Both the position numbers and the translations under genes were made by a program. Below the pieces are notes generated by a model. The model was not told the DNA's origin and ran no database searches. It worked only from the letters and a program-made list of their open reading frames with translations. A DNA stretch of 64,000 nt, taken from Mobula hypostoma (taxonomy: Eukaryota). The stretch covers positions 105,960,001-106,024,000 of the forward strand of contig NC_086107.1 of assembly GCF_963921235.1 (NCBI RefSeq), in the 5' to 3' direction. This document shows positions 8,897-55,998 of this stretch, one piece after another; within the stretch, counting starts at the first letter, position 1, and each line of letters opens with the position of its first letter.

Positions 8897-9935
8897 TTTT
8901 TCTGTTATGTTTGCAAGAATGCGGTGGTACTGAAGTGTTTTCACCCTACATACACAGAGACGATTTGCAGTGCGGAGAAATCATAGTGACAAGGAATTTA
9001 AAAGCATTAGCAACTGCAGTATTATGTTGTAGACCTGCATATCATTAATAGTTAATCGAATATTAAAGTGTCTGTGCTGTAACATCATTATAAAGTATGC
9101 GTTTTTGTTTTCACCATTTGTGCCTTTCAAATGTTGAATATTTAAACATTAAATATTCCTGCAGATTTTTGACAAACTACACAGGCTAGAGTTACTGGGA
9201 ATGGTGATTCAGAAGAGAGGTAGCTGTACTGGTAGTGGAGAGGGAAATACAATGGGCACATTCCCTATTATGTCTCAGCATAGACCTCCCTCCGTGGGGT
9301 TGTTCCCAAATGTTCCCAAACATCCTGATGACCAAACTCCTTTCTGCTTCTCTCCCCCTCCAGTGGCAAATCCACCTCTGGTTTTAACAGCGTGTGATTG
9401 AAAGGTTCACAGCTGGCAGCTAGTTCTTACTCCTGAGTTCATGTCTACTAAAAATCCCTCTTTTCCCCAACTCGTGTTTGTAGTCCCGCAGACTCCACAG
9501 GGTCTTGACGTCCGGGCGTGGTTCCACCTGCGGCTTAGCAACCGTGGGGTCAGGTGGGGCACTGAAGGTCAAAGGTGAAGGAGCAGCAAGAGAGACACAG
9601 ACGAAGGGAGACCCACAATCCCACCTGAACCAGGCAGGGTCTTTCTTCACTCTTTTCACCTTTGACGGACACTTGTCGCATCCAGCTTCCAAGCACATCA
9701 CTGGGCGTGCAGGGCCGAAAATGCGTGCCAGAGACTGCGCTGAAAAGTGGGGCATCAGAGCACGACTTCCAAAGCACTTTCTGGGGGGGTCGGGGTGGGG
9801 GTGGTGAGATGAAAGAGGAAGAATGGCCAGATGCCTTGCCTTAGCCTCCCCCAGTAAGTAGTGTTAACTTTTCATATTTCCAGTAACCATATCACTCTGA
9901 CCACTGCCGGCTTTGACAAGAGAGATGCCTACACT

Positions 9936-10591
9936 CTGTGTGTGTGAGAGTGAGAGTGAGAGAGACTGAGAGAGAGAGAGTGAGACAGAGAGAGAGAGAG
10001 TGAGAATGAGAGAGAGAGTGAGAATATGAGAGAGAGAGAGAGAGAGAGTGAGAATATGAGAGAGAGAGAGAGAGTGAGAAACCTACACTGTGTTTGAGAG
10101 AGTGTGAGAATGTGATACCTACACTGTGAGAGTGAGAGTGTGAGTGTGTGTGTGTGTGTGTGAGTGTGTGTGAATGTGTGTGAGTGTGTGTGAATGTGTG
10201 TGTGTGTGAGTATGTGTGAGTGTGTGTGAATGTGTGTGTGTGTGTGTGAGTGTGTGTGAATGTGTGAGAGTGTGTGTGTGAGTGTGTGTGAGTGTGTGTG
10301 TGTGTGAGTGTGAGTGTGTGAGTGTGTGTGAGTGTGTGTGTGTGTGTGAGTGTGTGTGAATGTGTGTGAGTGTGTGTGAATGTGTGTGTGTGTGAGTATG
10401 TGTGAGTGTGTGTGAATGTGTGTGTGTGTGTGAGTGTGTGTGAATGTGTGAGAGTGTGTGTGTGAGTGTGTGTGAGTGTGTGTGTGTGTGTGTGTGTGAA
10501 TGTGTGAGAGTGTGTGTGTGTGTGAGTGTGTGTGAATGTGTGTGTGTGTGAGTGTGTGTGAATGTGTGAGAGTGTGTGTGTGTGTGAGTGT

Positions 10592-10638
<47 letters not shown>

Positions 10639-10653
10639 TGTGAGAGTGTGTGT

Positions 10654-10692
<39 letters not shown>

Positions 10693-10712
10693 ATTGAGAG
10701 AGAGAGAGAGAG
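9936..10712. repeat. Long compound (TG)n/(AG)n microsatellite
   Basis: About 780 bp of TG/AG dinucleotides punctuated by gaat and gagt. It produces the spurious His-Thr ORFs. Confidence 0.98.
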
Positions 10713-11056
10713 GTCACTCGTCAAGCACTCTTTACACCAGTGGTTCCCAACTTTTTTATGCCGAGGACCCCTAACATTAATCAAGGGATCCACGACCCCT
10801 AGGTTGGAAACCCCTCCTTTACACCCTCATCAGTGGTTCAATGTTTCCATTGATATGAAAATAATTAATAGTCGATCAAATATTAATCTGGCTGTGCTCC
10901 AGCATCATTGTAATGTATATGTTTTTGCTTCCATCAGTTATGGATCTTGGAGTTGCTGACGTTTGGATATTCCTTCGGTCTTCTGAAGACATACATGGGT
11001 TAGAGAGATACTGTTGCTAGAATTAGTTGACCAGAAACGTGATAGTTATGGGGAAG

Positions 11057-11435
11057 GCGCAAAATGCCGGAGGAACTCAGCAGGCCAGGCAGTATCTATG
11101 GGAAAGAGTAAACAGTCGACGTTTCGGGCCGAGACCCTTCATCAAGACTGGAGAGGAAAGAGAGGAGTCAGAGTAGGAAGGTGGGGGGAGGGGAGGAAGA
11201 AGTACAGTGGGGCAGGTGATAGGTGAAACCGGGAGAGGGGGAGGAGGTGAAGTAAAGAGCTGCAAAGTTGATTGGTGAAAGAGATGAAGGGCTGGAGGAG
11301 GGGGAATCTGATAGGAGAGGGTAGAAGAAAGAAAAGGGGGAGGAGCACCTGACAGAAGTGATGGGCAGGTAAGGAGATAAGATGAGAGAGAGAAACAGGA
11401 ATGGGGATGGTGAAGGAGGGGGGAAAACACCGAAA
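11057..11435 (-). mobile_element. Penelope pseudo-LTR fragment inside the 3' UTR/flank of the MGP-like gene
   Basis: Same gaggaactcagcaggccaggcagcatctatgg...cagtcgacgtttcgggccgagacccttcatc terminus and purine-rich body. It is absent from the paralogous copies A and B. Confidence 0.8.
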
Positions 11436-12170
11436 GGTCAATAATGCTCCCCCTGTTATATCTCAACATGGCCAAGCATCAGTGGGATTGTGGTGAGTCC
11501 CCAATTGCCCAAAGAGGTGAAAGTTTTCTCATCACAAAACTCCTTCCCTTTTTTTGTGTCTTCTCCCTACCCTGTAAAGGCATCCGTTAGTCTTGCGAGA
11601 CCATAGCTCTGCGCCTGGAAAGTCTTCACTCTCCAGGGCGCAGGCCTGGGCAAGGTTGTATGGAAGACCGGCAGTTGCTCATGCTGCAAGTCTCCCCTCT
11701 CCACGACACCGATGTTGTCCAAGGGAAGGGCATTAGGACCCATACAGCTTGGCACTGGTGCCGCCACAAAGCACTGTGTGGTTAAGTGCCTTACTCAAGG
11801 ACACAACATGTTGCCTCGGCTGGGGATCGAACTAGCAACCTTCAGATCACTAGTCGAATGCCTTAACCACTTGGCCACGTGCCCACAAGGGGGAATTAAA
11901 CCTTCAGCTCTAACCGTGCAAGCGTGTGGTTCAGGAGGCACTGAACTCTTATCCTGAGCCGGGCTGAATGCTTATTTTCTTTACCCTCTCTGTCTAAGAG
12001 GGAGGGATAAGAGATTGGTCCTCGGCCATTGAGATCAATTATCTGTTTCCTCTGCTTTGCCTTGCCTGGTGCATTACACTAACTTGATATTTTTCCAGTA
12101 ACTGTATTGCTCTGACCGGCACCTGCTTTGACAGGGGAGTGAGGGGTTGGGAGATTCTTCGTAATCACAC

Positions 12171-12336
12171 TCAGTATTTAGCATAGGAGGCATAGTAGTA
12201 GGGTCTGGGGTATCCATAGTAACCGTAGCCACAGCCTTTGCCATAGTATGAGTAGGGGTAATCCTTTCCGCAGTTCTCATCATCGTCACAGTATTCTCTG
12301 TGAAGTTCAACAGGGCCCCTATAGATCTCCCGGGCA
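12171..12336 (-). CDS. mgp: Terminal coding exon (Gla domain) of a Matrix Gla protein-like gene (probably the chondrichthyan Mgp2-type paralog)
   Basis: Minus-strand acceptor ttctttctgtgtgtttcAG (AG at 12338-12337), phase 2. The exon reads T+AREIYRGPVELHREYCDDDENCGKDYPYSYYGKGCGYGYYGYPRPYYYASYAKY-TGA. PVELHREYCDDDENC matches the MGP core PVHELNREACDDYRLC (ExxxExC-x5-C). Assignment to a specific paralog is inference. Confidence 0.88.
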
Positions 12337-12594
12337 CTGAAACACACAGAAAGAATCAGTTTTCTATCACAACTCTCACAGCACCAGGACATCACAATAA
12401 GCTGTAATAACAAGGGGAATACCATTGCCAGAAGAGGCACAGCCAGCAGCAAGGATTAGGGTAAGTGCAAGCAGGATTTTCACACTCACCCTGGGCAAGG
12501 CTAGGACTAGAGGTCATGGGTTAAGGGTGAAAGGTGAAATATTTAAGGGAGGGACAAGAGAGGGAACGTCTTCACTCAGGGTGTAATGAGGGTG

Positions 12595-13017
12595 CCTTCT
12601 CCGTGGATTGTCACCTTGTCGCGGTGGAGAAGCTTGTGTGGTCCTGTGATCCCGAGAGCGATGCCGTCTGGTGCTATGCTCCTGGTAGGGTCACCCATGG
12701 CGGTAAGGTTGAGGGTGAGGTCCCTGACAAAGAACAATCCAACCAAGACCTCAACGGTGGAACAGGCGGACGAAGTTACTTCGAACTCAACGGCTGTGAA
12801 GGCGGATGAAGGCTGCAACAAATCTATCAGCTCCAATCGTCGTGGTTTCCATGCCATTGGAATCAGCTGGTTGATTTGTGAAGTATCGTGTGCTTCTTGG
12901 AGTGCAACATCAAGTACACGTTAAACAAATACACGCACAGGCGTCTTCGCTCTGTGGGACACTTCTTCAGAACGAAGACCATCATCCTCGACCTCGAGGA
13001 TAGCCACGACGACGATG
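12595..13017 (+). mobile_element. RTE-derived short non-autonomous retroelement
   Basis: RTE-type 5' UTR (tgtcaccttgtcgcggtggag...gctatgctcctggtagggtc) and a (GAC/GAT)n tail. 10-bp TSD aatgagggtg at 12585-12594 and 13018-13027, inside a CR1 fragment. Confidence 0.7.
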
Positions 13018-13517
13018 AATGAGGGTGTGGAACGAGCTGCCTGTGGAAGTGATGGTTGTGGGTTCCGCAAAATTCTGCTCCTATGTCTTGTGTTTGGCTC
13101 TGTCTCCCTGAACACGACAATCATCAGGCTCCTGGCCTGGCATGCTATGGGGTGTATGGGGTGTCCAGGGAGTGATAGCATCTCTGGTGATGGGGCTTGT
13201 CGTGTCCATTCCAGGGCAGCTCACTCACTTTTGGTCCCCGCTGGACACGTGGCTCTCACCTGTGGCTCCAAGTAGCTGTTTGCACGCAACACTCTTCACC
13301 ACTCTCTGGGGAAATCAGTTCCTCCTCATCTCCATCCTAAGTCTACTCCCCCGAACCTCGAGGCTATGTTCCCCTAGTTCTAGACTCACCTACCAATGGA
13401 GACTCACCTCTAGTCTCACCTTACAGCACCTTTGACTCGATCAAAGCTTTTGCAGATCGCTTCAACTATTATTCGCTCTGTCACAACTGATGTAGTGCTG
13501 TCCATAAATATTCTGTG

Positions 13518-16500
13518 TTAGTGTTGGTGCTGGTAGCGAGTGGTCGTAACACCATGAGTAATATCATGAGTCAGCATGCAGTGCAGACTAGATCAATGCG
13601 TCTCGTCAGTATGGTAGTGAGGGACTTCTGCACTGTCTAAGACAGTAAAACCAAGCTCTCATCTGAATATTTAAGAATTTCTTATGCTCTGAACAAGTCG
13701 ATCACACAAATAGTTCAACGGTTCTAATTAATATCAGAGACTGTGTACAGTATACAGCCTGAAATTCTTACTCTTCACAGACATCCACAAAACAGAAGAA
13801 CAAATGACAGAAAAAACATAAGAACCCCAAAGCCTCCCACGCACAAGCAGCAACAAAGCATCAACCCTCCCCCTTATATTCCAGCAGAACGCATTAGCAA
13901 TCACACCACCCACTATACAAGCATCAGCAAACCCCCTCCCAAAGAGAGACCATGATCTACAGACCATCAGAAACCACCGTTCACCAAATAGTTCGACATG
14001 CCACAGGCTCTCTCTCTTTGTGGACTAGTTCTGTGTACCAAATGGCAGTAGACTTCCCTACTAATGCTTTTCAAGCAACTGAACATTTATTATGGAGTGA
14101 TTTCTGTGGAGTCGAACAGTCGCCGCCAAGCAACCATTTACAGCAATCTACACAAATCCAAAATTAAAGAGATTTTGCAGGTGCTGGAAATCCAGAGCAA
14201 CACACACAAAATGCTGAAGGAACTCAGTAAGTCGACGGAGGGGAATAAACGGTCGACGTTTGGTCAGTCTGGATAGTAGCATACCGGTTATTGTAGCGCT
14301 TTACAACACCGGCACTAAGACCGGGGGTTCAGTTCCTGCTGCTGTCTGTAAGGAGTTTGCACGTTCTTCCCCCTTCCTCTGGATGCTCCAGTTTCCTCTG
14401 GCATTCCCAAGCAGCATGGTAGCATTATACACCCAACTGTTGCTGAGTCATCAGAGAATTTCTGTTGTATCTATAATCTGAGGTATACAGGGTAAACAGG
14501 AAGGAGCCAACTGTGGGGCCCCAGTGCTGCTTATAGCCACGTCTGACACACATCTCTGAAGCCACACAGACTGCGGTCTGCCAGTCAGGTAGTCCATTAT
14601 CCAGGATACAATGGAAGTGCCAGCCTGCACTGAACGGAGCTTCTACCCCAGCAATGAGCACTGCATGGTACTGAAGGCACTTGAGAAATCATGATCCTCA
14701 CAGTGCTACCCTGCTTACCCAAATGGGAGTCAGCTCTGGTCAGCAGGTAGATGACAGCATCGTCAACTCCAGTGTGCTCCTGCACTTTGAACTAGAGGTG
14801 ATGTATTAATGGTGAAATGTTTAAGGGGAATACAAGGGGAAACTTCTTCACTAAGAGGGTGATGAGTATGTGATACAAGCCCCGAACGGAAGTGGTGGAA
14901 GAGGGCATGATTTAAGATAAATTAGCATAAATACATGGATGGGGGGGTGGTACGGTCTGGGTGCTGGTCGATGGGATTAAGCAAGATAATAGTTTGGAGA
15001 GATTAGATGGGCTGAAGGGCCTGTTTCTGTGCTGTGGTGTTCTTTGACTCTATGACTCTAGTTCAGGAATGTGAGGGGATACACTTAGGGGTGTAGAACA
15101 AGACAGGGGAAGTATCTTAAATGGCGAAGACACTTAGTGATGTGGAGAATCTAGGGGATCATAGACCTACCCTTAAAGGTTGCAGGAGAGAACAAGAAGA
15201 TGATTAAAATGAGCTACTGATGCACAGAGGAACAGGGAGGTTATGCTGCAGCTGTATACTGCCCTAGTTAGACCAGAGCTGCAGTGTTCTGTGCAGATCT
15301 GGTCACCAGATTACAGTACAGATACCACTGTGCTGGAGAGGGGGCAGAGGAGAATTATGACAACGTTACCAGGACTGGAAAATTGTAGCTTTTAGAAAAG
15401 ATGAGATCAGAACAGTTGTTTTTCTTCGGAACAGAAGAGACGGAGGGTGAGATTTAATTACAGAGTGCAGAATTATAGTGGGTCCACATAGAGACAACGA
15501 GGACTGTTTTCCTTCACAGGTAAGAGGGCTGGAGGAGGAGAAGGACAGAACTTATTTTCAGAGGGATGTGGGGCTGCAGAACTCGCTGCCTGGAAGGGCG
15601 ATGGAGGTAGAGACCACAGTGGCTCCACATAGAGATGAGAACTGGTCTTCCACCAAAGGGTCAACAGCCAGGAGGGCTTAAAGTAAATAGTGAGAGGATA
15701 AGCACACTTTCAGAGGGAGATTGGGTGTACAGCTCAGTGCCTGAAAGGGTGATGAAGTAGAAACGTCACTCTGAAAGGTACTTAGGTGCGAATTTGAAGA
15801 GGAGAACAGGCAGGGATATAGATCAAGTTCTGGTGGGTGGTATTAGTATGGACTGTATCTTTGGTACAATGGGACAAATAATCTATGATTCTACTATTTT
15901 GTATATATTTTAAAATTTTATTTAGAGATTCCGTACAGTAACAGGCCCTTCTGCCCAATCACACCCATGTGACCAATTAGCGTACTAGCCCGCACGACTT
16001 TGGACTGTGGGGGGAAACAGGGACACACGGAGGAAACCCATGCGGTCACAGGGAGAACGTACCAGCTCCTGACAGACAGCGATAGGATTGAACACCAATC
16101 GCTGACATTTTAAAAATGATACACTAGCCTCTATGCGAACTTATTGCCCAGATTATGTAAAACTATGATTGTTCCAATCGGAAATCTAATAGAATGGATG
16201 CATCATCTATCAACCGCCTCTGCCCTGTTGAGACATTATTCTGTTTATACCAGCAGATCTTCCTACCTAGACTCCCCATCACTGTCACTCAGACCAGGGA
16301 ATAAAGCAGGCAATGCAAGGAGGGAGATCGCATTTGGTTTATTTATTTATTTCTGTTAAATCCGCAAGAGTACACTGGCGCGTGCATATTGGAGTGCTTT
16401 TAGACTAGATTCAGAGAAATGATTTACAGTGAGAAGGCATCAAAGAGACAAGGGAGAGATTATAAAAACAGTGGTAACTGCAACGGCGTGCATATTATTA

Positions 16501-18165
16501 ATGATTCACAAATACTAATCTGCCCGTGCCCTAACGTCGCTATAATGTGCGTGTTTTTGCTTCCATCAGCCATAGCCTTTGGAGTTTCTGAAGTGTAAAT
16601 ACCCCTTCAGACCTTTGACAAACTATGCAGGCTAGAGAGATACTGTTACTGGGAAGGGTGGATCAGAGAAGCAAAGCTATGCTGCGTTAGTGGTGAGGAA
16701 GCTACAACGGGCGCTTTCCCCGTTGTATCTCAGTGTTGTCTCAGATGGACGTCCATCCGAATGAGTCCCCCATCCCAATAGAGATGTCATTGCCCTTCTC
16801 ACCAAAAACCTTCCCCCTTTTTATCACCTTCTCTCTGGCCGACTATGAGGAGATGGAGTAACTGCTGAGGAGTCATACTTCCCGCTCTAGCTGTGCAAGG
16901 ACATGATTCAAAAGTTCACTCCCCCGTCTCTCTCTCTCACTCACTCTGGAGTTGGCCTGACTGGTCACTTTTCTTTTTCCTCTCACGTTTGCCAGAGGAG
17001 AGGAGAAGATGGCGGCGCAACGCAGCTCACAGCGGCCACTCCGGTGGTGATGTCTGTTATCTGTCAAGTAGGGTGCCGTGCACCATCCTGACTTGATGGA
17101 GATGGACGCGAGAGCACGGAGGAACATCTGGTGAAACTTCTGAAATGCCTGTTTCGCCGCTGCTGCTACTGTGTGGTCTGAAATCTCCGGAGGGGAAGGC
17201 CCCGAGTTCTCGGCTTTGCTTGTTGCTTGGCGGCCGGGGTGGGGTCGAAGCGCTCGGCAGAGGATGGTGCTCAGTGTCGAAGGGCTGGTCGGAGGCTCGA
17301 AGTTTTCCGATGGACTCAGAGTCCGCTGAGGTTGGGTGCTTCCAATGGTGCTGCGTCGGCAAGTTGGCGGCGCTTGGAGGTTCATGGCGGGGAGAGTTTC
17401 TCCCTTCTGCCGTCTGCGTGAGATGATGAGGCTATCAGGACTCTGAAACTTTTTTTTACTGTGCCCATGGTCTGCTCTTTATCAAATTACAGTATTGCTT
17501 TGCACTGTTGTAACTATATGTTATAATTATGTGGTTTTTGTCAGTTTTAGTCTTGGTTTGTCCTGTGTTTCTTGTGATATCATACCAGAGGAACATTGTG
17601 TCATTTTTTAATGCATGCATTTCTAAATGACAATAAACAAGGACTGAGTGTTCTCATAATCTAAATCTTCCGATTTCCGAACCAGTTGCGAGTTGTGTGG
17701 GTAAAAAGGCTAATGGCTAAAGGCATGGAGTGGATATCTCCGATAGTGGAAGAGTGTAGGACTCAGTGTCTGAAAGGGTGATGAAGTAGGAGTGTCACTT
17801 TCAGAGGTACTTCTATATGAACCCAGAACAGAACGACGGTGGTGAGTCTGTGGAGGACAAGTCATACTTGATGCAGAGTTTAATAGGTTCTGATCGGTAA
17901 AGGTGTCAAAGAGAGAAGGCAGAAAAATGGGGTTGAGAGGGATAACAAATCAGCCATGATGGAATGATAGAGCAGATGCAATGGGCCGAATGGCCTGATT
18001 CTGCTCCTATGTCTTATGGTCAACAGCCCAATAATTCGGCCTCACCTTCCCTGGTAAGCCATATTTGCTATTTCCAGTAACTGCATCAATCTGACCACTG
18101 CCTGCTCTGACAGTGGGTGGGGGAGGAGATTCTTTGTAATCACGCTCAGTGTTTGGCAGAGCTGC
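13518..18165. repeat. Local segmental duplication, copy B (inside intron 3 of the MGP-like gene), retaining the last codons and stop of the terminal exon
   Basis: 18070-18160 aligns with 12090-12185 (tttccagtaactg...ggagattctt-gtaatcac-ctcagt-ttt-gca). 16490-16830 aligns with 10860-11020 plus 11440-11560 and with 9040-9350. Confidence 0.85.
17000..17645 (+). mobile_element. CpG-rich non-autonomous retroelement; an inverted partial copy lies at 26930-27218
   Basis: gaggagaagatggcggcgcaa...ggatggtgctc is shared with the reverse complement of 26930-27218. The LINE-like 3' end carries tgacaataaa. Confidence 0.65.
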
Positions 18166-19150
18166 AGTCAGCAAGAAACGGGCCTTTTAGCTCATCAAGT
18201 CCACACCGAATATCAAACACCCTTTTTACACCAAAATCCCATGTTCCCAACAAAAGCTCATTTTAACCTTCCATATCCACACCCAGAGCGTATGCTGTAG
18301 TGTCTTTCTTTAACATCTCGTCTGAAAAAGCACACCTCTACAGTATAGCACTCCTTCAGTGCTAACATTGACAGCTTAAATCTTATTTTTTCTGATCAAG
18401 TCTCCAGAGTGGGACTCAAACCCACAATCTGTTGATTCCAGGGAGTGCCCTCTATTGAGCTAAGATCAGCAAAAAGAGTCAAACATATGGATTCAGTCCT
18501 GACGAAGGGTTCCAGCCCGAAACATTGACTGATCGTTTCCACGGATGCTGCCCGACCTGCTAAGTTCCTCCAGCGTGTTGTGAGTGTTGCTTTGATCCCA
18601 GCATCTGCAGAGTATTTTGTATCAAACATATGGAAGTTCTTTGGCTATATAACACCTTTGATTCAATAGAAGTACCTTAGCAATAATTTAAAATTACTCC
18701 TCATAAAGATGTGTTAGGATACGGGACCAGAGTGTGGGAAATGGCTCCCACAGGTCCACGATCTAAGGATCACCACTCCTGAGGTTTGGAATGACACAAC
18801 GCACACAAAACGCTGGAGGAACTCAGCAGGTCGGGCAGCATCCACGGAAATGAATAAACAGTCGACGGCTTGGCCCAGAGATCCTTCTTCAGGACTGGAA
18901 AGGAAGGGAGAGTGAAAAGGTAGGGTGGGGGGAGGGGAAGGAGGACTAGCTGGCAGGTAATAGGTGAAACCAGGTGAGGAGGAAAGGTGAAGGACCGGAG
19001 AAGAAGGAATCTGATAGGAGAGAAGAGTGGACCGATGACAAGACGTTGGAATGATGCCCCCCAACAAGGAAATTCCTGGGGATGTCACTGGGACAGTAAT
19101 AAATTGTCAGGGGCTTCAAAACAGAGAGGGAAGGGTGTGTCAGGCCCTAC

Positions 19151-19241
19151 CTCTCGTACGATGGTACGTGGTGGTAGCACCCATAGGCATGTCTCTTTCT
19201 CCTCACAAAGTTGTTTGCCGACTGCGTGCCCATGAAGGTTT
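19151..19241 (-). CDS. mgp: Internal exon (propeptide: gamma-carboxylase docking site and furin site) of the MGP-like gene
   Basis: Acceptor ctttcttatttcctgtAG, donor GTaggg, 91 nt, phase 1 to 2. It reads (E)TFMGTQSANNFVRRKRHAYGCYHHVPSYE(S). F-x5-ANxF matches MGP FINRRNANTF. It joins in frame to both neighbouring exons. Confidence 0.88.
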
Positions 19242-19352
19242 CTACAGGAAATAAGAAAGTGCTCTGGGTTAATGAGCAACCAATCTACACAATGTAACTG
19301 GGATCTGCACCCCTACCCTAATGCCAACCATGCCTGCTTTACCTTGTTAAAT

Positions 19353-19971
19353 ACATCCAGTGGTCTCTTTATTAGCTACCCCCTGTACCTAATAAAGTGG
19401 CCACTGAGTGTAGGTTCATGGTCTTCCACTGCTGTAGCCCGTCCACTTCAAGGTTTGACATGTTGTGCGTTCAGAGATGCTCTTCTGTACACCACTGTTG
19501 TAACGTGTCATTATTTGAGTTACTGTCTCCTGCCTGGCCATTCTCCTCTGACCTCTCTCATTAACAAGGTGTTTTCTTCCACAGATCTGCCGCTCGCTTG
19601 GTTTTTTTTCTGTTCTTTGCACTAATCTCTGTAAACTCTAGAACAGGGGTTCCCAGACCCTCGGTTAATGGTAGGGGCCCATAACCATAAAAAGGTTGGG
19701 AATTTGGGAACCCCTGCTCTAGAGACTTCTGTGTGTGAAAATCCCAGGAGATCAGCAGTTTTTGAGATACTCAAACCACCCCATCTGGTACCAACAATCA
19801 CTGAGATCACGTATCTTCCCCATGCTGATGACTGGTCCGAACAACAACTGAACCTCTTGACCTTCACTGCATGTGTTTATGCATTGAGTTGTTGTGCCAT
19901 GATTGGCTGATTAGATATTGGCATTAAACGAGCAGGTGCCCAGGTGTACCGCATAAAGTGGTCACTGAGTG
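19353..19971 (-). mobile_element. Tc1-derived element with a nested hAT mini-MITE (~19644-19716)
   Basis: Same family as 55451-55998. The insert has caggggttccca...tgggaacccctg ends. Confidence 0.8.
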
Positions 19972-20159
19972 CGAGAAGATGACAGTAATGACCAGGTCGT
20001 TTCAGTCTCCAGGGCAGACAAGAGCTGCGCCTCTGTGTTGAAGGAGCTGCTTACAGCTGGGTCATGGTCATGATTTAACATTGGCTGCATATCCCAGGAT
20101 TGGGAGGGGAATTTGGGATCCTTCATTTCCTTATTGCTGGAGGCATGGGCCACTGGGAA

Positions 20160-21105
20160 GTCAGTGTGTGGGATTGTCTCACAGTGAGGGTCACTGTGTG
20201 TGTGTGACCTGTTCCCCCAGTGAGGGTCAGTGTGTGTGTGACCTGTTCCCCCAGTGAGGGTCAGTGTGTGTGTGTGTGTGACCTGTTCCCCCAGTGAGGG
20301 TCAGTGTGTGTGTGTGGGATCTGTTCCCCCAATGAGGGTCAGTGTGTGTGTGTGTGACCTGTTACCCCAGTGAGGGTCAGTGTGTGTGTGACCTGTTCCC
20401 CCACTGAGGGTCAGTGTGTGTGTGGGACCTGTTCCCCCAGTGAGGGTCAGTGTGTGTGTGACCTGTTTCCCCAGTGAGGGTCAGTGTGTGTGTGTGGGAC
20501 CTGTCCCCCAGTGAGGGTCAGTGTGTGTGGGACCTGTTCCCATAGTGAGGGTCAGTGTGTGTGTGTGTGACCCATCCCCCAGTGAGGGTCAGTGTGTGTG
20601 TGTGTGTGACCTGTTCCCCCAGTGAGGGTCAGTGTGTGTGTGAGACCTGTTCCCCCAGTGACGGTCAGTGTGTGTGTGTGTGACCTGTTCCCCCAGTGAG
20701 GGTCAGTGTGTGTGTGTGTGACCTGTTCCCCCAGTGAGGGTCAGTGTGTGTGTGACCTGTTCCCCCAGTGAGGGTCAGTGTGTGTGTGTGGGACCTGTTC
20801 CCCCAGTGAGGGTTAGTGTGTGTGTGACCTGTTCCCCCAGTGAGGGTCAGTGTGTGTGTGAGACCTGTTCCCCCAGTGAGGGTCAGTATGTGTGTGACCT
20901 GTTCCCCCAGTGAGGGTCAGTGTGTGTGTGACCTGTTCCCCCAGTGAGGGTCAGTGTGTGTGTGACCTGTTCTCCCAGTGAGGGTCAGTGTGTGTGTGTG
21001 ACCTGTTCCCCCAGTGAGGGGCAGTGTGTGTGGGACCTGTCTGCTAGTGAGGGTCAGTGTGTGTGTGGTACAGTCCCCCAAGACGGTCAGTGTGTTTGTG
21101 TGGGA
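20160..21105. repeat. Minisatellite, unit CAGTGAGGGTCA(GT)nGACCTGTTCCCC (~32-40 bp, roughly 25-27 units), in intron 2 of the MGP-like gene
   Basis: Directly visible tandem units with a variable-length internal GT tract. Confidence 0.97.
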
Positions 21106-21978
21106 AAGGACCCTGGTAAGTGCCAAGAGATGGAGAACAACTGCATCATGAAAAAACAGGAAAAGAAATTTGGTTATCAGAATGTAACCAGTTCTGTGGG
21201 AATAATTTTGACAAGGAGGACGTCTTGCAGGTCTGCTAAGGAGCTGGTGCAGGAACAATGGGCTGCAAATTGGCCAGTCTACAATCAGCAGGAGTCGAAT
21301 GGAGGCCAGGGTGACGTCAGAGGCAGAAGAGAGAGTTTATGTCAAACGGATTGCGTTTCTGTTATTAAATTAGCGCCAAATGACTGGGATTGCTGTTTTC
21401 ATACAATACAGCATGTGCGACATGATCTCAGCCAACAGACAACAGGTCAAGACATTTAGCAGAGAAAGTCAGCTCTTCCAGAATAATATGGTCACGTCAT
21501 TGAGTAATTAGATGGTAGTTGAAGATCACAATATGAGATTAGCGAGAATTGAAAGACTGTCATCTTGAGAATTACGTAGCATCATTACAGGACAGTGGTT
21601 TCAGTGTGCGGTTGTGATGACATCAGCTGGTTTTAACTGCCCTTTGAAAACTTTCTCTCTTCCAGTGTAGCTGGCAGTTTCTTCCCCCGGTGATTTATAC
21701 ATCACTCAACCTGCACTTGGAAGCTGACACACTGTCCCTTCACAGGAGGTAGCAAAGTCCCAACTCCTGCCCAACCCCAGTCCCTAGCTCTCACCCCACT
21801 CACCCTTGCCCCCTCTCTGTGCCCTTTGGCAACCCCTTCATGCTTGGCTGAGATGAGATCCCCCTAGGCACTGCCCCTCTCACTGTCCTTAGCTTCTCGT
21901 TTCCTGTCCACTCACTAGCTCTCCACATCATGCACTGTTATAACCTTCAGTGTACAAACTCTTGGCAGATGTACTGAC

Positions 21979-22014
21979 CTTCTTTCTCGGCTGATCCGAT
22001 GAATTCTTTGGGGG
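21979..22014 (-). CDS. mgp: Short internal exon (exon 2 equivalent) of the MGP-like gene
   Basis: Strong acceptor tttctctctctctcttccAG, donor GTcagt, 36 nt, phase 1 to 1. It reads xPKEFIGSAEKE(E). Size and phase fit the short second exon of MGP/BGP genes. Confidence 0.75.
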
Positions 22015-22962
22015 CTGGAAGAGAGAGAGAGAAACAAATAGAATTCAAAGTACAGCTGGCAGAGTCCACCAAATCCTCAACCAGTTTAAAGAAGTGCAGT
22101 GGGGGGCACTTACAGAGTCCAAAGACCTAGATACAATACTGACGGGTTCTGTCCATGTAGAGTTTCATTGTGGACTTCAGAAAGGGTAAGAGGAGGGAAA
22201 ACACACCAGTCCTCATAGGGGGATCAGAAGTGGAAAGAGTGAGCAATTTCCGTAAGACCATAAGACCACAAGACAAAGGAGCAGAAGTCGGCCATTCGGC
22301 CTATTGTCTGCTCCGCCATTTTACCATGAGTTGATCCATTCTCCCATTTAGTCCCATTCCCCCGCCTTCTCACCATAACCTTTGATGCCCTGGCTACTCA
22401 GATACCTATCAATACACCCAATGGCCTTAAATACACCCAATGACTTGGCCTCCACTGCCGCCCGTGGCAACAAATTCCATAGATTCACCACCCTCTGGCT
22501 AAAAAAATTTCAAGTCCCTGGGTGTCAATATCTCTGAGGATCTAATCTGGGCCTAACATATTGATGCAGCTACAAAAATAGCACAACAGTGGCTATATTT
22601 CATTAGGAGTTTGAGGAGATTTGGTATGTCACCAAAGTGCACATTTCTACAGATGAACCATGGACAGCATTCTAACTGGCTGCATCACCGTCTGGAAGGG
22701 GGTCGGGGGGCATTGCACAGGATCAAAATAAGCTGCAGAAATTTGTAAACTCAGTCAGCTCCATCATGGCCAGTAGCCTCTCCAGCATCCAGGGCATCTT
22801 TAAGGAGTGATGCCTCAGGAAGGCAGTGTCCATCTTTAAGGACTCTCATCACCTAAGCCATGTCCTCTTCTCATTGCTACCATCAGGGAGGAGGTGAAAG
22901 CAACACTCACAACACGCTGGAGGAACTCAGCAGGTCGGGCAGCATCCATGGAAACGCTGACT

Positions 22963-22996
22963 GTCCTGACGAAGGGTTCCGTCCCGAAACGTTGAC
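22963..22996 (+). ncRNA. Minimal hammerhead motif in a palindromic Penelope-derived insert
   Basis: GUC-CUGACGA-AGGGUUCCGUCCC-GAAAC-GUU/GAC. Confidence 0.6.
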
Positions 22997-23441
22997 TGAT
23001 CATCTCCATGGATGCTGCCCGACCTGCTGAGTTCCTCCAGCGTGTTGTGAGTGTTGCTTTGACCCCAGCATTTGCAGATTATTTTGTGTTTAGGGAGGAG
23101 GTGAGGAAGCCTGAAGACACACACTCAACGTTTTAGGACCAGTTTCTTCCCCTCTGCCTTCTGGTTTCTGAATGGACATTGAACCCATGAACACTATCTC
23201 ACTACTTTAGCACTGCTTACTTAATTGAACACATATCTATATAGACTTTTGCACAATTCTGTATATTATGCCAGTGATATTAAACCTAATTCTGATTCTA
23301 ATATTCTCTGTGACCACATAGGGTTTCCTCCAGATGCTCTGCTTTCCTCCCGTGTGATTTAGGTGCGTGGGTTGGTGGGCGAATTGGCCACCGTAAATCA
23401 TGGCCAGTGTGTGAGTGGGTGGCAGAATCGGGGGGCAATTG

Positions 23442-23682
23442 TGTTATGTCTTGTAACTTCAAAACATTAAATTAATTCAAAGGAAAACCTGGGGAGTCCG
23501 AAATACGGGAGTATCTTCAGCTTTACTTTTAGCGAGGCGCACACGTATCACGTGGTAGCATGATGACATATGCAATTAATGTATTTTTACATATAACCCA
23601 TAATTAATTATTTAAATGAACAAGACTGCTTAATTAAAGAATCCCCATATATAAGTGTACTCAAATATTATTGAAATACACA
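23442..23682. mobile_element. Possible short solo LTR
   Basis: TG...CA ends with an imperfect 5-bp TSD (aattg/agttg). It interrupts a SINE remnant. Confidence 0.4.
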
Positions 23683-26600
23683 AGTTGGTGAGAGTATAGG
23701 GAGCATAAATGGGATTAGTGTAGGATCTGTACAAAACCGGTTGTTTGATGGTTGGTTAGGACGAGCCGGTGTACTTGCACTGTGTGTGACTCGACTGAAC
23801 CTAGCAACAGACACAGGTAAGCAACAGGTCAGTGTGAGAGTGAGAGGACGCTGAAGTGTCAGATGTGTCCTCCCACACATCACAGAGAGGAGAAAGCGGC
23901 CAAGATGATTCAGCAGACGAAAATCCAGAAAATCATGAACCCCCCCTGGTGAAGCAATGGAAATAAATGAACAGGGGTTGTTGGGCTGACAGAAACTGTG
24001 GATACTGTGGAGAATGCAGCAAAGGAGATGACTGGTAATTGGTTTATTAAAGTACAAATTTGAAAGTAAATTCATTATCAAAATACACATGCTACCATAT
24101 TCAGCCCTGAGTTTCATTTTCCTGCGGGCATACTCAATAAATCCAAAGAGTAGTGACTATAAGAGAATCAATGAATAATCAGCAAACTAGGGTTTTCAAC
24201 CAGACTGCAGAAGAGTCCTAAGGCTCCTGTACTTTCTTCCTGAAGGCAGCAACAAGAAGAGAGCATGGCCTGGGTTGTGGAGGTCCCTGATGTTGGATTG
24301 AATTGGCTTATTATTGGTGCAAGTACCAAAATGCAGTGAAAACCATTGGTTTGCCATCCAGGCAGATCGCTCCGCACGTAAGTACAGTAAGGTTATGCAA
24401 AAGAAACAAGAATGCAGAATATAGAGTTACGGTTACAACGAAAGAGCTGTGCAGGTAAACAGACAAACTGCAAGGGTCATGATGAGGTACATGGAGAGAT
24501 CAATGCATGCCCAAGAAGGCACCCACAAACATCTTGTTGGCACATGGCATGCAGTGCCCCCACTCGATTCTTTAAACACCACCCATAATAAAAAGATACA
24601 AAATGATTATTTTCACTGTCAAGCGAAGCAGTGTTTGTTTCTTTTCCACAGGAGATGTTTTCTCAGGAAATCTCCATAATTATTGTCATTAATTCACTAA
24701 TGAATGATAACGTCTGTTCAAAATTACCGTGGCATGCTAGAGAATTTTGTTTGGAAGATTATTGCCAATTTGGGCGCACATTTGTGAAAGGATTTGCCAC
24801 CCCTGGTATGGGTGGAGATACGTCTCTACTGAAGGAGGTGTAAGGCACTCTTTCCCTCTGCTAGCCTTGGGCAAGATGTAGCACCTGCTTATCCCCACGA
24901 TCAGGGTCACGTGAAGCCATGGTAACAGGTGGTGGATGGTCGTATGAGCAGCTGGTGCATATCACAAGTCCTAGTTATATGACCACTGACACCAGGCAGA
25001 CAATCTCTGAAGAGTATTGATAATGGCTGGGGTCTCCCATCTTGTAAAGACACTGCCCAGAAGAAGGCAATGGCAAACTACTTCTGTAGAAAACTTTGCC
25101 AAGAAAAGCCATGGTCATGGAATGATTAATGTCGCCCACGTCATATGACACGGCACATAATGATAATGATGATGGTATGGGAGGTCTTATAACAGCAGGA
25201 TGGAATCTGACCTTCAGCCCAGAGGTACGTGTTCTTAGTCTTTGTACCTTCTGCCTGATAGGAGGGGGGGAAGAGAGAATGACCGGGTGGGTGGGATCTC
25301 TGGCTGCTTTCAAGGCATTTGAAAAGACAAAGTACACTGGAGCAGGGAACATTTGGGTAAATTTCTGACAGTATTCCCGTGAGTCGGGGACATCGGTGGC
25401 AAATATCAGGCTTTGTTACCCATCGTTAATTGTCCCTAAGAAGAAGGTGGCGGCTGTCGTCTCAAATTCTTACAGTTCTTCGAGTGAGGGAGACAGGCAT
25501 TGGGGTCAGAAAGGGGTTCTTGTGGCCATTCGACCCATCTAGTCCGTGCCAAGCCATTAATCTGCCAAGTCTGTGCCGACATGGTATTCTGCCTACTCCC
25601 ATTGGACTGAACCCGGACCATGGGCCTCCATGCTCCTCCCATCCATGTACCTATCCAAATTTCTCTTAAATCGTGAAATCAAACCTGCACCCACCACTTC
25701 TGCTGGCAGCTCATTTCACACTCTCACCACCCTCTGAGTGAAGAAGTTCCCCCTCATGTTCCCCTTAAACATCGCACCTTTCACCCTTAACCCATGACCT
25801 CTAGTTCTAGTCTCACCAAACCTCAGTGGAAAAAGCCTGCTCACATTTACCCCACCTATACCCCTTATAATTTCGTATACCTTCTACATGTGACTCCAAA
25901 CCCACCAATGAGATTGCCTCTTAATTTACCTCACATGCCACTCAGGAAGATGACCATTGGCAAAGCTCAGTAAATGCCAATCTTGTCCAGGTCCCCCAAA
26001 AAATGAATAAATAAAGAAAAATTCTCCTCTCAATCCCATTTCGACAACCGTGAGTCAGTGTCAGGTGGGAGATACGAGAACTGGCTCTCTCTTAGGCTAG
26101 GCCATGGTGTCCGTGAAGACCAGAGTGAACACTGAGGCACTTCAGGGACACGTGGACTGGACGTCCCACTGGGTGGATGGACAAGGCAGGGAAATTCCGG
26201 AGCGAGAGTAGAGTGAGGAATTATAGGGAAAGTGAACCAAAAGATGGTGGCAGGAGCGGTGCGATCTAATTTCAATGCTGACCTGAGGTGCTGCCTTTGT
26301 GGAGTTTCCACACTCTCCATGGTTCTCCGGTTGACCAAAGGTCAGTTACTTAGAAAAAAATAACCTTTAGTGTAAGTGAGTGATATGTGTAGGTAGGGAA
26401 GGGGACTGATGGGATTGCTGTGAGAGCTAGTGTACTCTCAATGGGCTGAATGGTCTCCTCTGTCGTAGGAAACTATCAGTAGGTGAGACTTAGGGCAAGT
26501 GGAAGAGAGTTGGTATCAATGTTACCAGTGCACATTGTAAGAGGAGGGAGCCAAGAACAGAGCCAACATGGAGCTTTATACAGTGTAGTGGCCAGCAGGG

Positions 26601-29600
26601 CTGTCGCAGATTATGTTTCACCCGGTCACATTTCTCTAAGCTTTCCCTTATTGATTTATTGAGATACAGCATGGAAACAGGCCCTTCTGGACCTTCAGAT
26701 GCTGCCCAGAAACCCCCAATTTAATCCTATTCTAATCACAGGACAATTTAATTTTACTAATTAACCTACCACCGGTCAACATTCCGAGCCGAAATCCTTC
26801 ATCAGAACTGGAGAGGAGGAGCTAAAAAGTCAAAATAAAAAGGTGGGGGAGTGTGGAAGGGATGGGGGATGGAAGTTACTACAGTTATGCACGCTGTTCC
26901 TTTTTGTAACATCGACTGTTTATTCATTTCCGACACCGAGCACCGAGCACCATCTCTGCCGAGCGCTTCGACCCCGCCCCGGCCGCCAAGCAACAGGCAA
27001 AGCCGAGGACTCGGGGCCTTCCCCTCCGGAGATTCTGGATCACACAGTAGCAGCAGCAGCGAAGCAGGCATTTCAGAAGTTTCTCCAGCTGTTCCTCCGT
27101 GCTCTCACGTCCGTCTCCATCAGATCAGGATTGTGCACAGCACCCTACTTGACAAATAACAGACATCACCACCGGAGTGGCCGCTGTGAGCTACATTGCG
27201 CCGCCATCTTCTCCTCCTGCCAATTCATAATTATCCTGAGAGCTCCCTCAGGGTGGAGAGACATGGTGGGAGGAACCTTGGAATGAGGAAGGAAACGTGG
27301 TCTGAGTGGAGTGAGGAATGTTGAGGGGAAGAGTTGGCAACGGTGGGAGGGATGTACATTAATCTGGCAAAACTATCCTGGGGGAAACTTCAAAGTGAAG
27401 TCAAAACTCATTAATCCCATGTTAAAGTTTATTGGGGAACAAGCCCTGGAGGTGAAGCCAAGGTCTGGGGATTTAATTGAAGTGCAGCCCAGAGGCTCAT
27501 GTCACTGAATGAGACAGTGGTCTGGCACCTTCTAATGTAGCCTCATCTTTTCAGGTACTCCCGATTAGCAATCCCTACACAGCTCCTTCCCCTGCACCTT
27601 GAGAACCTGAAGCAGACATATCTGTCTATGTTTGGTCCACATCCCTCTAACCTTTCCTGTCCAAATCTTTGATAGCGTCTTTTAAATGTTGCAATTGTAC
27701 CTGCCCCAAAGACGTCACCTGGCATCTTGAGGTTTCGCTACACAGTGCATACCATCCTCTGGGTGAAGAAGCTGCCCCTCTGGTCTCTTTTAAACCTTTA
27801 GCCTCCTTTAAATCTTTTACCCCCTTCCATGGAAAAATGATGGTGTACATTTCCTCTTATGACTTTATATATCTCTATAAGGTCATTTCTCGGACCCACG
27901 CTCCGGTGAATAAGATCTAGCCTGCACAATCTCTCCCTATAATTTAGGCCCTTGAGTCCTGGAGGTGTGTCCTGCTGGGACCAGGGCACAAAGCGCTCAG
28001 TCTACTCATCCAGGTGGCCTTTACTTACACCCAAGTTTAGAATGGGACAGGACATCTCACTTTGTAAGTTGTTATCACCTCTGTACTCGAATATTCTGAC
28101 TCTCTCCTGTCTCCACAAATATAAGACCATGGCAACCCCAACTTCTCAGCACCAAGGACCATTCATCGTGACCTTCACTAGTTCTGGGTTGAGCAAAGCC
28201 TTGCTTTTAAAATTATCATCCATGCTTTTAACTTCCCCCTTGTCTCCCTTAGTTACCTCACCCTAACTCTGCAACCTCCTCCAATCCTAGAACCGTCTGT
28301 GGTCTCTATGTTCCTCCAGCCCAGCCCTCCTCATCGTCCTGCGACAACACCACCATCTTGTCTTCAGTCACCCGTGCCCCAAGCTCTGGAATTCCCTCCG
28401 ACAATGCTCCTTAATCATCCCTCTTTCAGTCACCACTGAACATCTCTGGATATGGTGCCAATTTTTGCTAGATAACGTTCCTTATAAGAAAGGTTAAGCG
28501 AGCTAGGGAGTGAAGGAGGATGAGAGGTGACTTGATAGAGATGTACAAGATGATAAGAGGCATAGATAGAATGGACAGCCAGGTAATTTATTTTTCCCCA
28601 GGATAGAAATGATTAATAACAAGGGGCCTAAATTTAAGATGGTTGGAGGAAAGTATAGAGGGTGATAGGCTGACTTTGGAGAGGACGGTGCTGTTTTGCA
28701 GCAGAGCAATATTGACCTCTATTGTCTTAGCCTGCCTTTCACTGTGTAATGTTGCACATTGGCTTCTTCATGATGTAATATCTCCCATGCCCAAACAGTC
28801 TATAGAGCATAAAGATGAATGTCCAAGCTCAGATGAAGATGAGCTTGAATTACACAAAGATAAAGATCTGATGGATTCGGGGATGTTTCCGATAGTGGGA
28901 GAGTCTAGGACCAGAGGGCACAGCCTCAGAATACAAGGACATCCCCTTGGAACAGAAATGAGGAGGAACTTCTTTATCCAGGGGGTGGTGAAACTGTGGA
29001 ATTAATTGCCATTGACGTCTGTGGGGGCCAAGTCTTTGGGTATATTTAAAGTTGAAGTTGATAGGTTCTTAATTAGTAAAGGTAACAGGGTGAAGGCAGG
29101 AGAATGGCGTTGAGAGAGAAAATAAATCAGCCATGATTGAATGGCAGAGCAGACTCAATGGACCAAAAGGCCTAATTCTGCTCCTATGTCTTATGGTCTC
29201 ACCCGTATTCTATCCATCATATAGGTGTTTGATGGGACAGTTAGATGGAGCTTTACTCTCATTCTGTACAGTGTATGATAGTCCCTCTCACCGCCCATCC
29301 ACTTCCGATGGACTCACCCTCACTTTGATGTTAACAAAAAGTGTGAAAGAATTCTTCTTCTCATCTGTGTCCACCAAAGTCACGGATCTTTCCGCTGCCG
29401 GGTGCAATCATGGGATTACCGAACGTCTCCCAGGGCTGCAATTTTAAGTCCCTGCTGGGACCATCTTGAAGAAACTAACAGTGTAAAAAGAAAACATTTT
29501 GTTGAAATTAGGCTTCATTTGCAGAGTACAGAAAATTCCACTTAATAAAAAAGAAAGTGATGGTGTGGAATGTATTGTAAACGGTGACACGTAGCAGCTC

Positions 29601-53720: not shown

Positions 53721-55450
53721 TTGAGGGCTGTTGAGCGGAGGAAGGAGCTTGGTCGAAGAGCAGGGCCCAGGGTGTGGGGTATCCCGATGCTGGGAGATGG
53801 CGATAATGATCCCGATGGGAGGGGTGCGGAGCGGATCGGCTGTCCCAGAGAAGGGTGAGAGGCCGGACCCCAACAATCAGGTCTGAGGCACGGCTCCGTC
53901 TGGGCGAACGTCGCTACGGCCGCACTCCCATTAAAGCGGCCTGTCGGAGGCTCAATTTATTTTTGTGGCCAGGGCAAATTTTCCAAAAAAGGAAAACTAT
54001 TTTGTATCAGAAGTCAAGTGTTCCGCTGGTTTTAATTGTTTCAGTCAATATATTTAGACCGCGGCCCCAGGGATGTCTGTGGATGTGGACGTGGACGGGG
54101 CTCAGACGCCACAAAGCCCAAGGACATTTCTCACATCCAGTTACACCGCCGGCGGGGTCGGGAGTTTAAACAGAAGTCCTTGCTCCTACTACTGATTAAC
54201 TTCTGGAGAAGTCCTTGTTACAACATCCCCCCGCTGGACACTACCCCAGCGGAGACCGACTGCTAACCCGCCCCCAGCACCCTCAAACGCGCCCCGAAAT
54301 CAGTCTCCGTGCGCCGCAGGATGCAGATTATAAACCAGGAGCCCCGGCTGGGTTTCACCCTCTGTAAACAAGATGTTGGGGGAACCCGGCTGTCCAGGCA
54401 ATGGAGATTCCAGATGAAGACGTCAACTGCCCGTTTCAAGATTCGAGATACAGGATTGCCTTTTTTTTGGTCACTCATCAGCGTAAAGGAGAACAAAATG
54501 ATTGGTACTCCGGTTCAGATGCAGCATTAAAAAGCACGATAAGATAAAGAACACAATATCAATAAATACATAAGATTAGCTTCTATAGACGGACGAGGGT
54601 ATACATAATCGGCATCAGGGTTAATATCACCGGCATATGTCGTGAAATTTGTTGTCTTTGCGGCAGCGGTACAATTAAATGCATAATAATAGAAAGAAAA
54701 AAGCTGGATTACAGTAAATATATATTAAATTGTTAAATTAAATAAGTAGTGCAAGACTAGAAATAAAAAAGTAGTGAGATGGTGTTCATGGATTCAATGT
54801 CCATTCAGAAATCGGGTGGGGAAGAAGCTGTTCCTGAATCACTAAGTGTGGGCCTTCAACCTTCTGTACCTCCTCCCTGATGGTAGCAATGAGAACAGGG
54901 CATGTCCTGGGTGATGGGGGGTTCTTAATGATGGCTGCCACCTTTCAGGGGCATCGCTCCTTGAAGATGGATGCTACCTACGAAGGCTAGTGCCCGTGAT
55001 GGAGCTGACTAAGTTTACAACTTTCTGCAGCTTACTTGGAACCTGTGGTGTAGTTCCCCCCTCCCCGTACACACTAGACGGACATGCAGCCATTTACTAT
55101 GCTCTTCCCAGTGCATCGGTAGAAATTGGCCAGTGTCTGGTGACAAACCTCCCCAAACTCCTCATGAAATATAGCCACTGTCATGCCTTTTTTGTAGCTG
55201 TGTCGACATGTTGAGCCCAGGTTAGACCCTCAGAGATATTGACACCCGGGAACTTGAAATTGCTCACTGGCAGATTTCACTCTGTTAGAAGGGTTTGACA
55301 AAGACTCAAGACCATTGCTGCATTTTCATAGTGATTAATCTGACTCAGCATCCAGGGAGGGATATGCACCCTTTTTACCCACTCAGACCAATATCTCAGT
55401 CCTTGCCTCCTGAGCATCTACTGCCCATCCCATTCGCTGATTTCACACAA

Positions 55451-55998
55451 CCACTCAGTGGCCACTTTATGAGGTACACCTACACACCTGCTCGTTAACG
55501 CAAATATCTAATCAGCCAATCTTTCCAGGAAAGCATACAGGCGTAGTCAAGAGGTCCAATTGTTGTTCAGACCAAACATCAGAATGGGGAAGAACTGTGA
55601 TCTTGAGTGACTTTGACCGTGGAATGACTGTTGGTGCCAGATGGGGTGGTTTGAGTATCTCAGAAACTGCTGATCTCCTGGGATTTTCATGCACAACAGT
55701 CTCTAGAGGTTACAGAGAATGGTGTGAAAAACAAAAAAATACCCAGTTCTGTGGGCATGAAAGCCTTGTTGATGGGAGAGGTCAGAGGAGAATGGCCAGT
55801 CTGGTTCAAGCTGACAGGAAGGTGACAGTAACCCAAGTAACCACACGTTACAACAGTGGTGTGCAGCAGAGTGTCTCTGAGCACACAACGTGTCGCAACT
55901 TGAAGTGGATGGGCTACAGCAGCAGAAGACCACAGACAGACACTCGGTGGCCACTTCATGTGGTACGAGAGGCACAAAATAAAGTGGGTACTGAGTGC
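55451..55998 (+). mobile_element. Tc1/mariner-derived non-autonomous element
   Basis: TIR cactcagtggccactttat... and a Tc1 N-terminal HTH remnant LSDFDRGMTVGARWGGLSISETADLLGFSCTTVSR...KWMGYSSRRP. Confidence 0.85.

Follow-up and report, generated by a model that had tools for sequence, protein, structure and literature searches.

What does a run of tyrosine and glycine do at the end of a Gla protein, and is it new where it is found? The window, a stretch of 64,000 nucleotides from Mobula hypostoma (NC_086107.1, positions 105,960,001 to 106,024,000), carries on its minus strand, at 12171-12336, the final coding exon of a gene for a small Gla protein. A sequence-only reading had described the end of this exon as a Tyr/Gly-rich expansion accompanied by two extra cysteines, and had suggested a Gla protein repurposed as a matrix component. 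We find that this is almost certainly the 3' coding exon of an orthologue of Mgp2, a chondrichthyan-specific paralogue of matrix Gla protein. The gene has already been named by Leurs et al. 2021 (Front Genet, PMC8006282), and this locus is one further orthologue. Taken as one whole statement, the Mgp2 identity and the matrix function proposed below are fairly probable.

Exon 4 starts at 12336, behind the acceptor ...tgtgtgtttcag, and its coding part (12336-12174, minus strand), which follows the strong acceptor ...ctgtgtgtttcag, translates in frame as AREIYRGPVELHREYCDDDENCGKDYPYSYYGKGCGYGYYGYPRPYYYASYAKY. It contains the ExxxExC Gla core at 12308-12288 and a C-x5-C loop whose Cys codons lie at 12290-12288 and 12272-12270, together reading ELHREYCDDDENC. 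The second loop Cys codon ends at base 12270; from there the minus strand (12171-12269) encodes GKDYPYSYYGKGCGYGYYGYPRPYYYASYAKY and then stops, giving a tail of 32 residues at 12174-12269 (13 Tyr, 6 Gly and 4 Lys/Arg) and a TGA stop codon at 12171-12173.

Seven kilobases upstream, exon 3 (19241-19151, minus strand; 91 nt, phase 1 to 2) is propeptide-like and encodes TFMGTQSANNFVRRKRHAYGCYHHVPSYE. The carboxylase docking motif ANNF (19218-19207) and the furin site RRKR (19203-19192) read ANNFVRRKR and are followed by HAYGCYHHVPSYE; the exon lies between the acceptor ...tttcctgtag and the donor GAG/gtaggg and is 80-86% identical to its shark orthologues. Exon 2 (21979-22014, minus strand; 36 nt, phase 1 to 1), located by tblastn with the shark orthologues, encodes (A)PKEFIGSAEKE(E) between the acceptor ...ctcttccag and the donor AAG/gtcagt, and is without the phosphoserine box of Mgp1/MGP. 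The donors of exons 2 and 3 score 8.3 and 8.0 on a position weight matrix for donors. The codon at the junction of exons 3 and 4, AG/T, is Ser. Exons 2, 3 and 4 thus have canonical splice sites and phases 1/1/2, which fit the MGP-type pattern, and the gene is single-copy in the 3.48-Gb genome.

The peptide predicted downstream of RRKR has 68 residues, including 18 Tyr, 8 Gly and 4 Cys, the cysteines at positions 5, 30, 36 and 49. The sequence, coordinates and counts given in the sequence-only reading were all correct. The calculated pI is 9.0 for the tail against 6.0 for the whole peptide.

At a background Tyr frequency of 0.03, the tyrosine content has a binomial tail probability of ~3e-12. 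As a local control, we scanned both strands of the window and 120 kb of flanking DNA, 184 kb in total, for all stop-to-stop ORFs of at least 30 aa. Exon 4 ranked first with 11 Tyr per 25-residue window, the runner-up reached 8, and only nine ORFs reached 6. Tandem Repeats Finder detected no DNA repeat in 12100-12400, and the Tyr/Gly tail is therefore not a microsatellite.

In composition the tail resembles the high glycine-tyrosine proteins, such as hair keratin-associated proteins and eggshell or egg-case precursors, which are short, are secreted or sit in a matrix, have abundant GY/GYG and often scattered Cys, and are insolubilised by disulfide or oxidative Tyr chemistry. This is a compositional analogy only, and no homology was detected: Pfam returned 0 families at E values up to 10 for the exon 3 and exon 4 peptides, and the ESM Atlas gave no usable match for exon 4.

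A full HMMER scan of exon 4 against 1.84 billion representative proteins returned three proteins at E <=0.001 (P0002, P0003 and P0004), of which P0002 and P0003 were inspected. The sole credible relative is P0002, a 114-aa protein of Cetorhinus maximus named uncharacterised at NCBI (E 2.8e-12, 67% identity); P0003 was rejected as an unrelated repeat protein. The 90% cluster of P0002 has three members, the others from Chiloscyllium punctatum and Mustelus asterias, and by these source names it spans three shark orders. Exon 4 is 67-71% identical to the three shark proteins (tblastn E 1e-21 to 2e-22). In the alignment with these proteins, 67-70 of 91-92 residues are identical (74-76%), compared with 79 of 91-92 (86-87%) between sharks. 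Among the 73 columns invariant across the three sharks, 59 are also kept here and 14 are changed.

All three shark proteins have one architecture. The signal peptide MRTLILL... is followed by APKEF..., by ETFMDKQ.ANNFVRRKRH.YGYYHH.PSYE, by SVREIYKSP.EVNREYC.GD.NC and finally by the tail GKGYPYA.YGKGY...GY...RPYY.S.KY. A profile built from the orthologues matched pre-pro-osteocalcin chains in the PDB (E 1.3e-4), from the signal peptide through the propeptide to the Gla core; its match to matrix Gla protein was weak (E 0.25). With BLASTP, exon 4 aligned to an Mgp1-type protein in the core only (7/20 identical, E 5e-4). A word-indexed search with the orthologue profile matched P0002 and two Mgp1-type proteins (3 among 2585 candidates), and no batoid Mgp2 protein emerged from word-indexed searches with the exon 4 peptide (54 aa), P0002 or the profile. 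The exon 4 peptide drew a single candidate, which did not score, and P0002 matched itself alone among 2 candidates.

A whole-genome scan with the Pfam Gla model PF00594 gave 21 matches, 19 of them over the cut-off and none inside the window. The same scan also missed the Mgp1 and Bgp loci of this genome, and it therefore misses short Gla exons. Because the Pfam Gla model fails on exon 4, we can only infer Glu carboxylation in Mgp2. The Gla domains of catshark and elephant-shark Mgp2 are likewise unrecognised by InterPro (PMC8006282).

Leurs et al. describe Mgp2 as a gene of four exons with a furin site unusual for Mgp, a retained ExxxExC, no phosphorylation box and a C-terminal part that is 'poorly aligned'. 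All the Mgp2 traits given there hold at this locus except exon 1, which was not found. By eye, the peptide matches the Mgp2 rows of elephant shark, catshark and little skate in Supplement 7 of the same paper. Features in common with chondrichthyan Mgp2 are the layout of exons 2-4, ANxF, an RRKR/RLKR furin site, the ExxxExC core, a divergent C-terminal half, the absent phosphorylation box, membership in an Mgp/Bgp cluster and the Tyr/Gly tail. Differences from the other chondrichthyan sequences are two Tyr-to-Cys replacements at mature residues 5 and 49, the exon 1 not found here, and core changes unique to this copy (V to L and N to H within ExxxE, and G to D twice).

With MGP/Mgp1 and Bgp, Mgp2 has in common the plan of small secreted vitamin-K-dependent proteins: a docking motif, the ExxxExC core and a disulfide loop of the C-x5-C type. 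The mature peptide is predicted to be released by furin, as in osteocalcin. In contrast to MGP and Bgp, a low-complexity Tyr/Gly tail stands here in place of the post-loop part that makes up the later Gla-domain helices, and the second Cys is followed by Gly where MGP has an acidic residue. Exon 2 also separates the two paralogues within this genome, reading PKEFIGSAEKE in Mgp2 and ADSSESNEIDD in Mgp1.

The genomic neighbourhood agrees with this assignment. Downstream of Mgp2, and on its contig and strand, come Mgp1 at ~250 kb and the Bgp Gla exon at ~430 kb (Mgp1 exons at C45:105.720-105.728 Mb, Bgp Gla exon at 105.538 Mb, all on the minus strand like Mgp2), a position that fits the cluster described in PMC8006282.

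Mgp1 (G000:C45:105719570-105728513, minus strand) consists of exon 1 MRILILLGLSVLAAVCNA (L033:4213-4160), the exon 2 given above, exon 3 VLFLGRGDAYSFMRP... and exon 4 EVNREQCEEYPLC with a basic tail ending YYGY; its docking motif is DAYSF, not ANxF. The osteocalcin-like Bgp has a propeptide exon FLEKQKANSVVKRPRRS (L030:3004-2960, minus strand) and a Gla exon YKTPYEHRRELCESFYPCDYLANRIGFQTAYQQYFGNYYK followed by a stop (L030:1653-1543, minus strand), both at G000:C45 ~105.538-105.540 Mb. Two Mgp1-type proteins of the database, P0007 and P0008, come from Stegostoma tigrinum and Pristis pectinata. Their signal peptide, MRTLILLSLCALAAVC, is identical to that of the shark Mgp2 proteins P0005 and P0006, and the first exons of Mgp1 and Mgp2 are thus far better conserved than the remainder. 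An Mgp1 of Pristis is now in the database; PMC8006282 had reported none.

Judged from the aligned sequences, the Tyr/Gly-rich tail is old and common to sharks, skates and chimaeras. In elephant shark, the part after the second loop Cys starts with GKGYP and continues with four GYM units, followed by GKG and GYYRP. The catshark tail is GKGYPYMAAYGKGYGYGYGGYQGYYAPYYQSAKY, and that of the little skate is a long GYGYGHGYGYGYGY run ending YYSPYYYASSKQ. Since the tail occurs in elephant shark, catshark and skate, the module predates the holocephalan-elasmobranch split. An unconserved or frameshifted tail in relatives would have told against the sequence-only reading; the tail is conserved from chimaera through sharks to skate, and the reading of a repurposed protein survives the comparison.

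In the window and the three sharks the tail runs to 29-32 residues; 10-13 of these are Tyr, 6-8 are Gly and always 4 are Lys/Arg, and all four tails follow the pattern GK.YPY..YGKG...GY...RPYY...KY. Basic residues and prolines align across the four sequences. Conservation of the tail is positional and goes beyond composition. In the main text of PMC8006282 the words 'tyrosine' and 'elastoidin' occur 0 times each, and the tail is called only 'poorly aligned'. The comparison shows that the 'poorly aligned' part of Mgp2 is a conserved module of ~30 residues, ~40% of them tyrosine, older than the split between chimaeras and elasmobranchs.

The module is less an expansion than a substitute for the usual post-loop ending. 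Counted by eye, 24 residues follow the second Cys in the human MGP row of Supplement 7, against 32 in the tail, and two Mgp1-type proteins have 41-47 residues after the loop.

How such a protein might work can be sketched from its relatives, with the steps of secretion, carboxylation and furin cleavage taken from the MGP/osteocalcin family. The precursor would enter the secretory pathway, as family members do, and the vitamin-K-dependent carboxylase would dock on the F...ANNF propeptide and convert some Glu residues of YE-S-AREIYRGPVELHREYCDDDENC to Gla. Furin would then cut after RRKR, as in osteocalcin, and release a 68-residue peptide of two parts: an acidic head that binds calcium and carries the disulfide loop, and a basic tail (pI ~9, 40% Tyr). 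The tail may anchor the peptide in the collagenous matrix of ceratotrichia and other unmineralised fibres of that sort through aromatic stacking and possibly through oxidative Tyr cross-links, leaving the Gla head to bind calcium. We favour this function over the others considered, but tentatively, as a possible rather than a probable role. If the tail is anchored in this way, Mgp2 would be built into the matrix and would not act as a soluble regulator.

The only published expression data for the orthologue come from catshark (PMC8006282). By in situ hybridisation, Mgp2 signal is very strong in the mesenchyme that encloses the ceratotrichia, which are unmineralised collagen fibres, and this mesenchyme is described as 'surrounding and most probably synthesizing' them. 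The signal is up at stage 32, at the onset of ceratotrichia formation, and a weak signal appears in tooth buds before mineralisation. Expression at the ceratotrichia fits a matrix component better than a regulator of mineralisation, and is no proof of it. The Tyr/Gly C-terminal half and this expression pattern both suit the repurposing proposed in the sequence-only reading; the tail, on the other hand, turns out to be a feature of the whole Mgp2 paralogue and not of this lineage. Together, tail and expression provide a concrete hypothesis on what Mgp2 does and on what shark fin fibres are made of.

Mgp2 could instead be a local inhibitor of calcification, whose Gla head would block mineral growth as in MGP and whose tail would only tether it to collagen fibres that have to be kept free of mineral. 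The ceratotrichia are unmineralised and the tooth-bud signal precedes mineralisation (PMC8006282), and conservation covers the ExxxExC core, the loop and the docking motif alike. Against inhibition speak the exon 2 without a phosphoserine box, which PMC8006282 cites as required for the inhibitory action of MGP, and the replacement of half of the Gla domain, which Pfam fails to recognise. We regard an inhibitor as somewhat unlikely.

The anchoring proposal could be carried further, to a Gla protein turned structural, with the tail covalently built into elastoidin, the material of the ceratotrichia or shark-fin 'needles', as part of its long-known tyrosine-rich non-collagenous fraction, beside actinodin, and with the new Cys pair adding disulfide chemistry in this copy. 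If true, this would be a plain example of a structural role taken on by a regulator that binds calcium; we think it unlikely. A link between elastoidin and Mgp2 was not found in the literature searched, which did not extend to subscription journals. Actinodins (And1-4) resemble Mgp2 in being tyrosine-rich (PMC6497306) and in their expression in distal fin mesenchyme, including that of catshark (PMC4778128), although they form an unrelated gene family. They are genetically required for actinotrichia in zebrafish (PMC13120675). The tyrosine-rich part of elastoidin has been ascribed to actinodins (PMC6497306), and distal fins of catshark express And1 (PMC4778128). Actinodins would account for the tyrosine, and Mgp2 is therefore not needed to explain it.

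The two extra cysteines present a separate question. The first (TGC, 19177-19179, minus strand; alignment column 52) is mature residue 5 and the second (TGT, 12231-12233, minus strand; alignment column 96) is mature residue 49, inside the tail. Conservation of the pair among orthologues, as raised in the sequence-only reading, is not borne out: both are absent from the three sharks, catshark and elephant shark, and the second is absent from little skate, whose row covers the last exon only. The first site is Tyr in the three sharks, catshark (HAYGY) and elephant shark (NVGYY). The second is Tyr in the three sharks, catshark (GKGY) and little skate (SKGY), and elephant shark has Leu or Gly near it. 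Given Tyr in the other sequences, each Cys corresponds to a one-base change from TAY to TGY (an A-to-G transition), and both count among the 14 changes at the 73 shark-invariant columns. On this comparison, the extra cysteines are lineage-specific Tyr-to-Cys replacements at Tyr positions of the tail type.

Unpaired cysteines are seldom tolerated in small secreted peptides. If the two arose as a pair, one extra disulfide, Cys5-Cys49, may form, and the gain could be adaptive, providing a second intramolecular bridge from the N-terminus to the tail, a covalent dimer or a link to the matrix. The pairwise gain keeps the number of cysteines even, at 4, and each is a single A-to-G change from Tyr inside a Tyr-rich segment. 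No other Mgp2 sequence compared has either of them, however, and they could be recent, polymorphic or errors. Structure prediction yielded no usable geometry: the AlphaFold2 model of exon 4, from a 4-row alignment, had a mean pLDDT of 44.2 and a pTM of 0.15 with a short helix at residues 8-14 only, and, covering exon 4 alone and hence being without Cys5, it was uninformative. We consider an adaptive gain doubtful.

The cysteines could instead be substitutions under relaxed constraint, in a copy of Mgp2 that is impaired or decaying in this lineage, its first exon, with start codon and signal peptide, gone or unrecognisable. The signal-peptide exon was not found by tblastn with the three shark proteins in 22015-64000 and a further 60 kb upstream (102 kb). 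Nor did it appear in ATG-anchored ungapped scans, motif scans or scans for a signal peptide with a phase-1 donor; low-copy stretches at 27350-28150 and 23400-24750, read by eye, held no exon 1. As a positive control, the same tblastn caught exon 1 of Mgp1 (72-75% identity), which lies 4.1 kb upstream of the Mgp1 exon 2; a conserved exon is therefore within reach of the search. From 150 bp upstream of Mgp2 exon 2 the DNA holds transposon copies (22164-22695), and the gene strand has neither AATAAA nor ATTAAA from 12170 to 9000, within 3.1 kb past the stop. With neither an exon 1 nor a canonical poly(A) signal found, the copy may therefore be impaired. The 14 changes among the 73 shark-invariant columns also point this way, as does the 27-residue core, which by eye differs from shark at 7 positions here and at 3 in little skate, a difference that is not significant. 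With shark as outgroup, the unique changes at the 27 core positions are 6 here and 2 in little skate, again counted by eye and too few to weigh.

Other features speak for an intact gene. All 97 codons of exons 2-4 are open, canonical sequences mark the three acceptors and two donors, the polypyrimidine tracts are strong, and every diagnostic motif is intact (ANNF, RRKR, ExxxExC and C-x5-C). Identity to the sharks is near that between sharks, given a probably deeper split, and a first exon that is short, diverged or replaced would escape the searches. Decay of the copy seems to us rather improbable; the Cys pair and the missing first exon are mainly a warning about the integrity of this copy. 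It is very unlikely that assembly error or a rare allele in the sequenced animal explains one or both Cys codons. Each is one base away from a Tyr codon, but this would take two independent A-to-G differences, 7 kb apart and both yielding Cys, and the exons are unique, non-repeat DNA in an assembly at chromosome scale. Three RNA runs under the species label, aligned to 11400-31399, gave repeat-derived contigs; among the joints listed none agreed with the exon junctions, which bears neither way on expression, and no variant is listed at either Cys codon.

Several candidates for exon 1 were set aside. The ATGs at 22216, 29991, 30837, 36715 and 40103 lie in multi-copy elements or have the look of transposon tails, and a start by read-through upstream of exon 2 is excluded, with no ATG before the stop in frame. 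The ATG at 22216 opens MRT... inside a transposon copy and mimics the start of the missing signal peptide. This copy (22164-22250 and 22508-22695, matching 41391-41121) sits directly upstream of exon 2 and is split by a nested insertion at ~22252-22511, of which the flanks hold many copies. On the other side of the gene, the 3' flank had looked by eye like a tRNA-derived SINE, but ARAGORN found no tRNA in 11500-12100. A (TG)n/(CA)n-type tract at ~9895-10826, ~1.3 kb past the Mgp2 stop, produces CVCVCV-like frames on both strands.

A Pfam scan of 121 of the 124 window ORFs of at least 95 aa, leaving out three in the (TG)n tract at 9895-10826, found no other host gene; the families matched were RVT_1, Tc3-type HTH and ALKBH8_N. 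The window contains transposon debris in the form of a 619-aa open frame with the reverse-transcriptase domain RVT_1 (42292-44148, minus strand; E 3.7e-32), a Tc3-type transposase HTH fragment (55441-56028, plus strand) and an ALKBH8_N-like fragment (61210-61806, minus strand).

A further open frame of 84 aa lies between Mgp2 and Mgp1, ~55 kb past Mgp2 and on its strand (L015:7172-7423, minus strand; G000:C45:105917172-105917423). It is GY-rich and single-copy, with no second copy in the genome and no ESM Atlas match, and carries GYGNGYDNGYGYGNGY repeats (30-nt period, 93% matches) with Ser/Asp/Glu-rich flanks. The frame could belong, as an exon, to a further secreted Tyr/Gly-rich protein of the cluster. 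A second Gly/Tyr/His-rich frame follows 300 bp beyond it (L015:6673-6906, minus strand).
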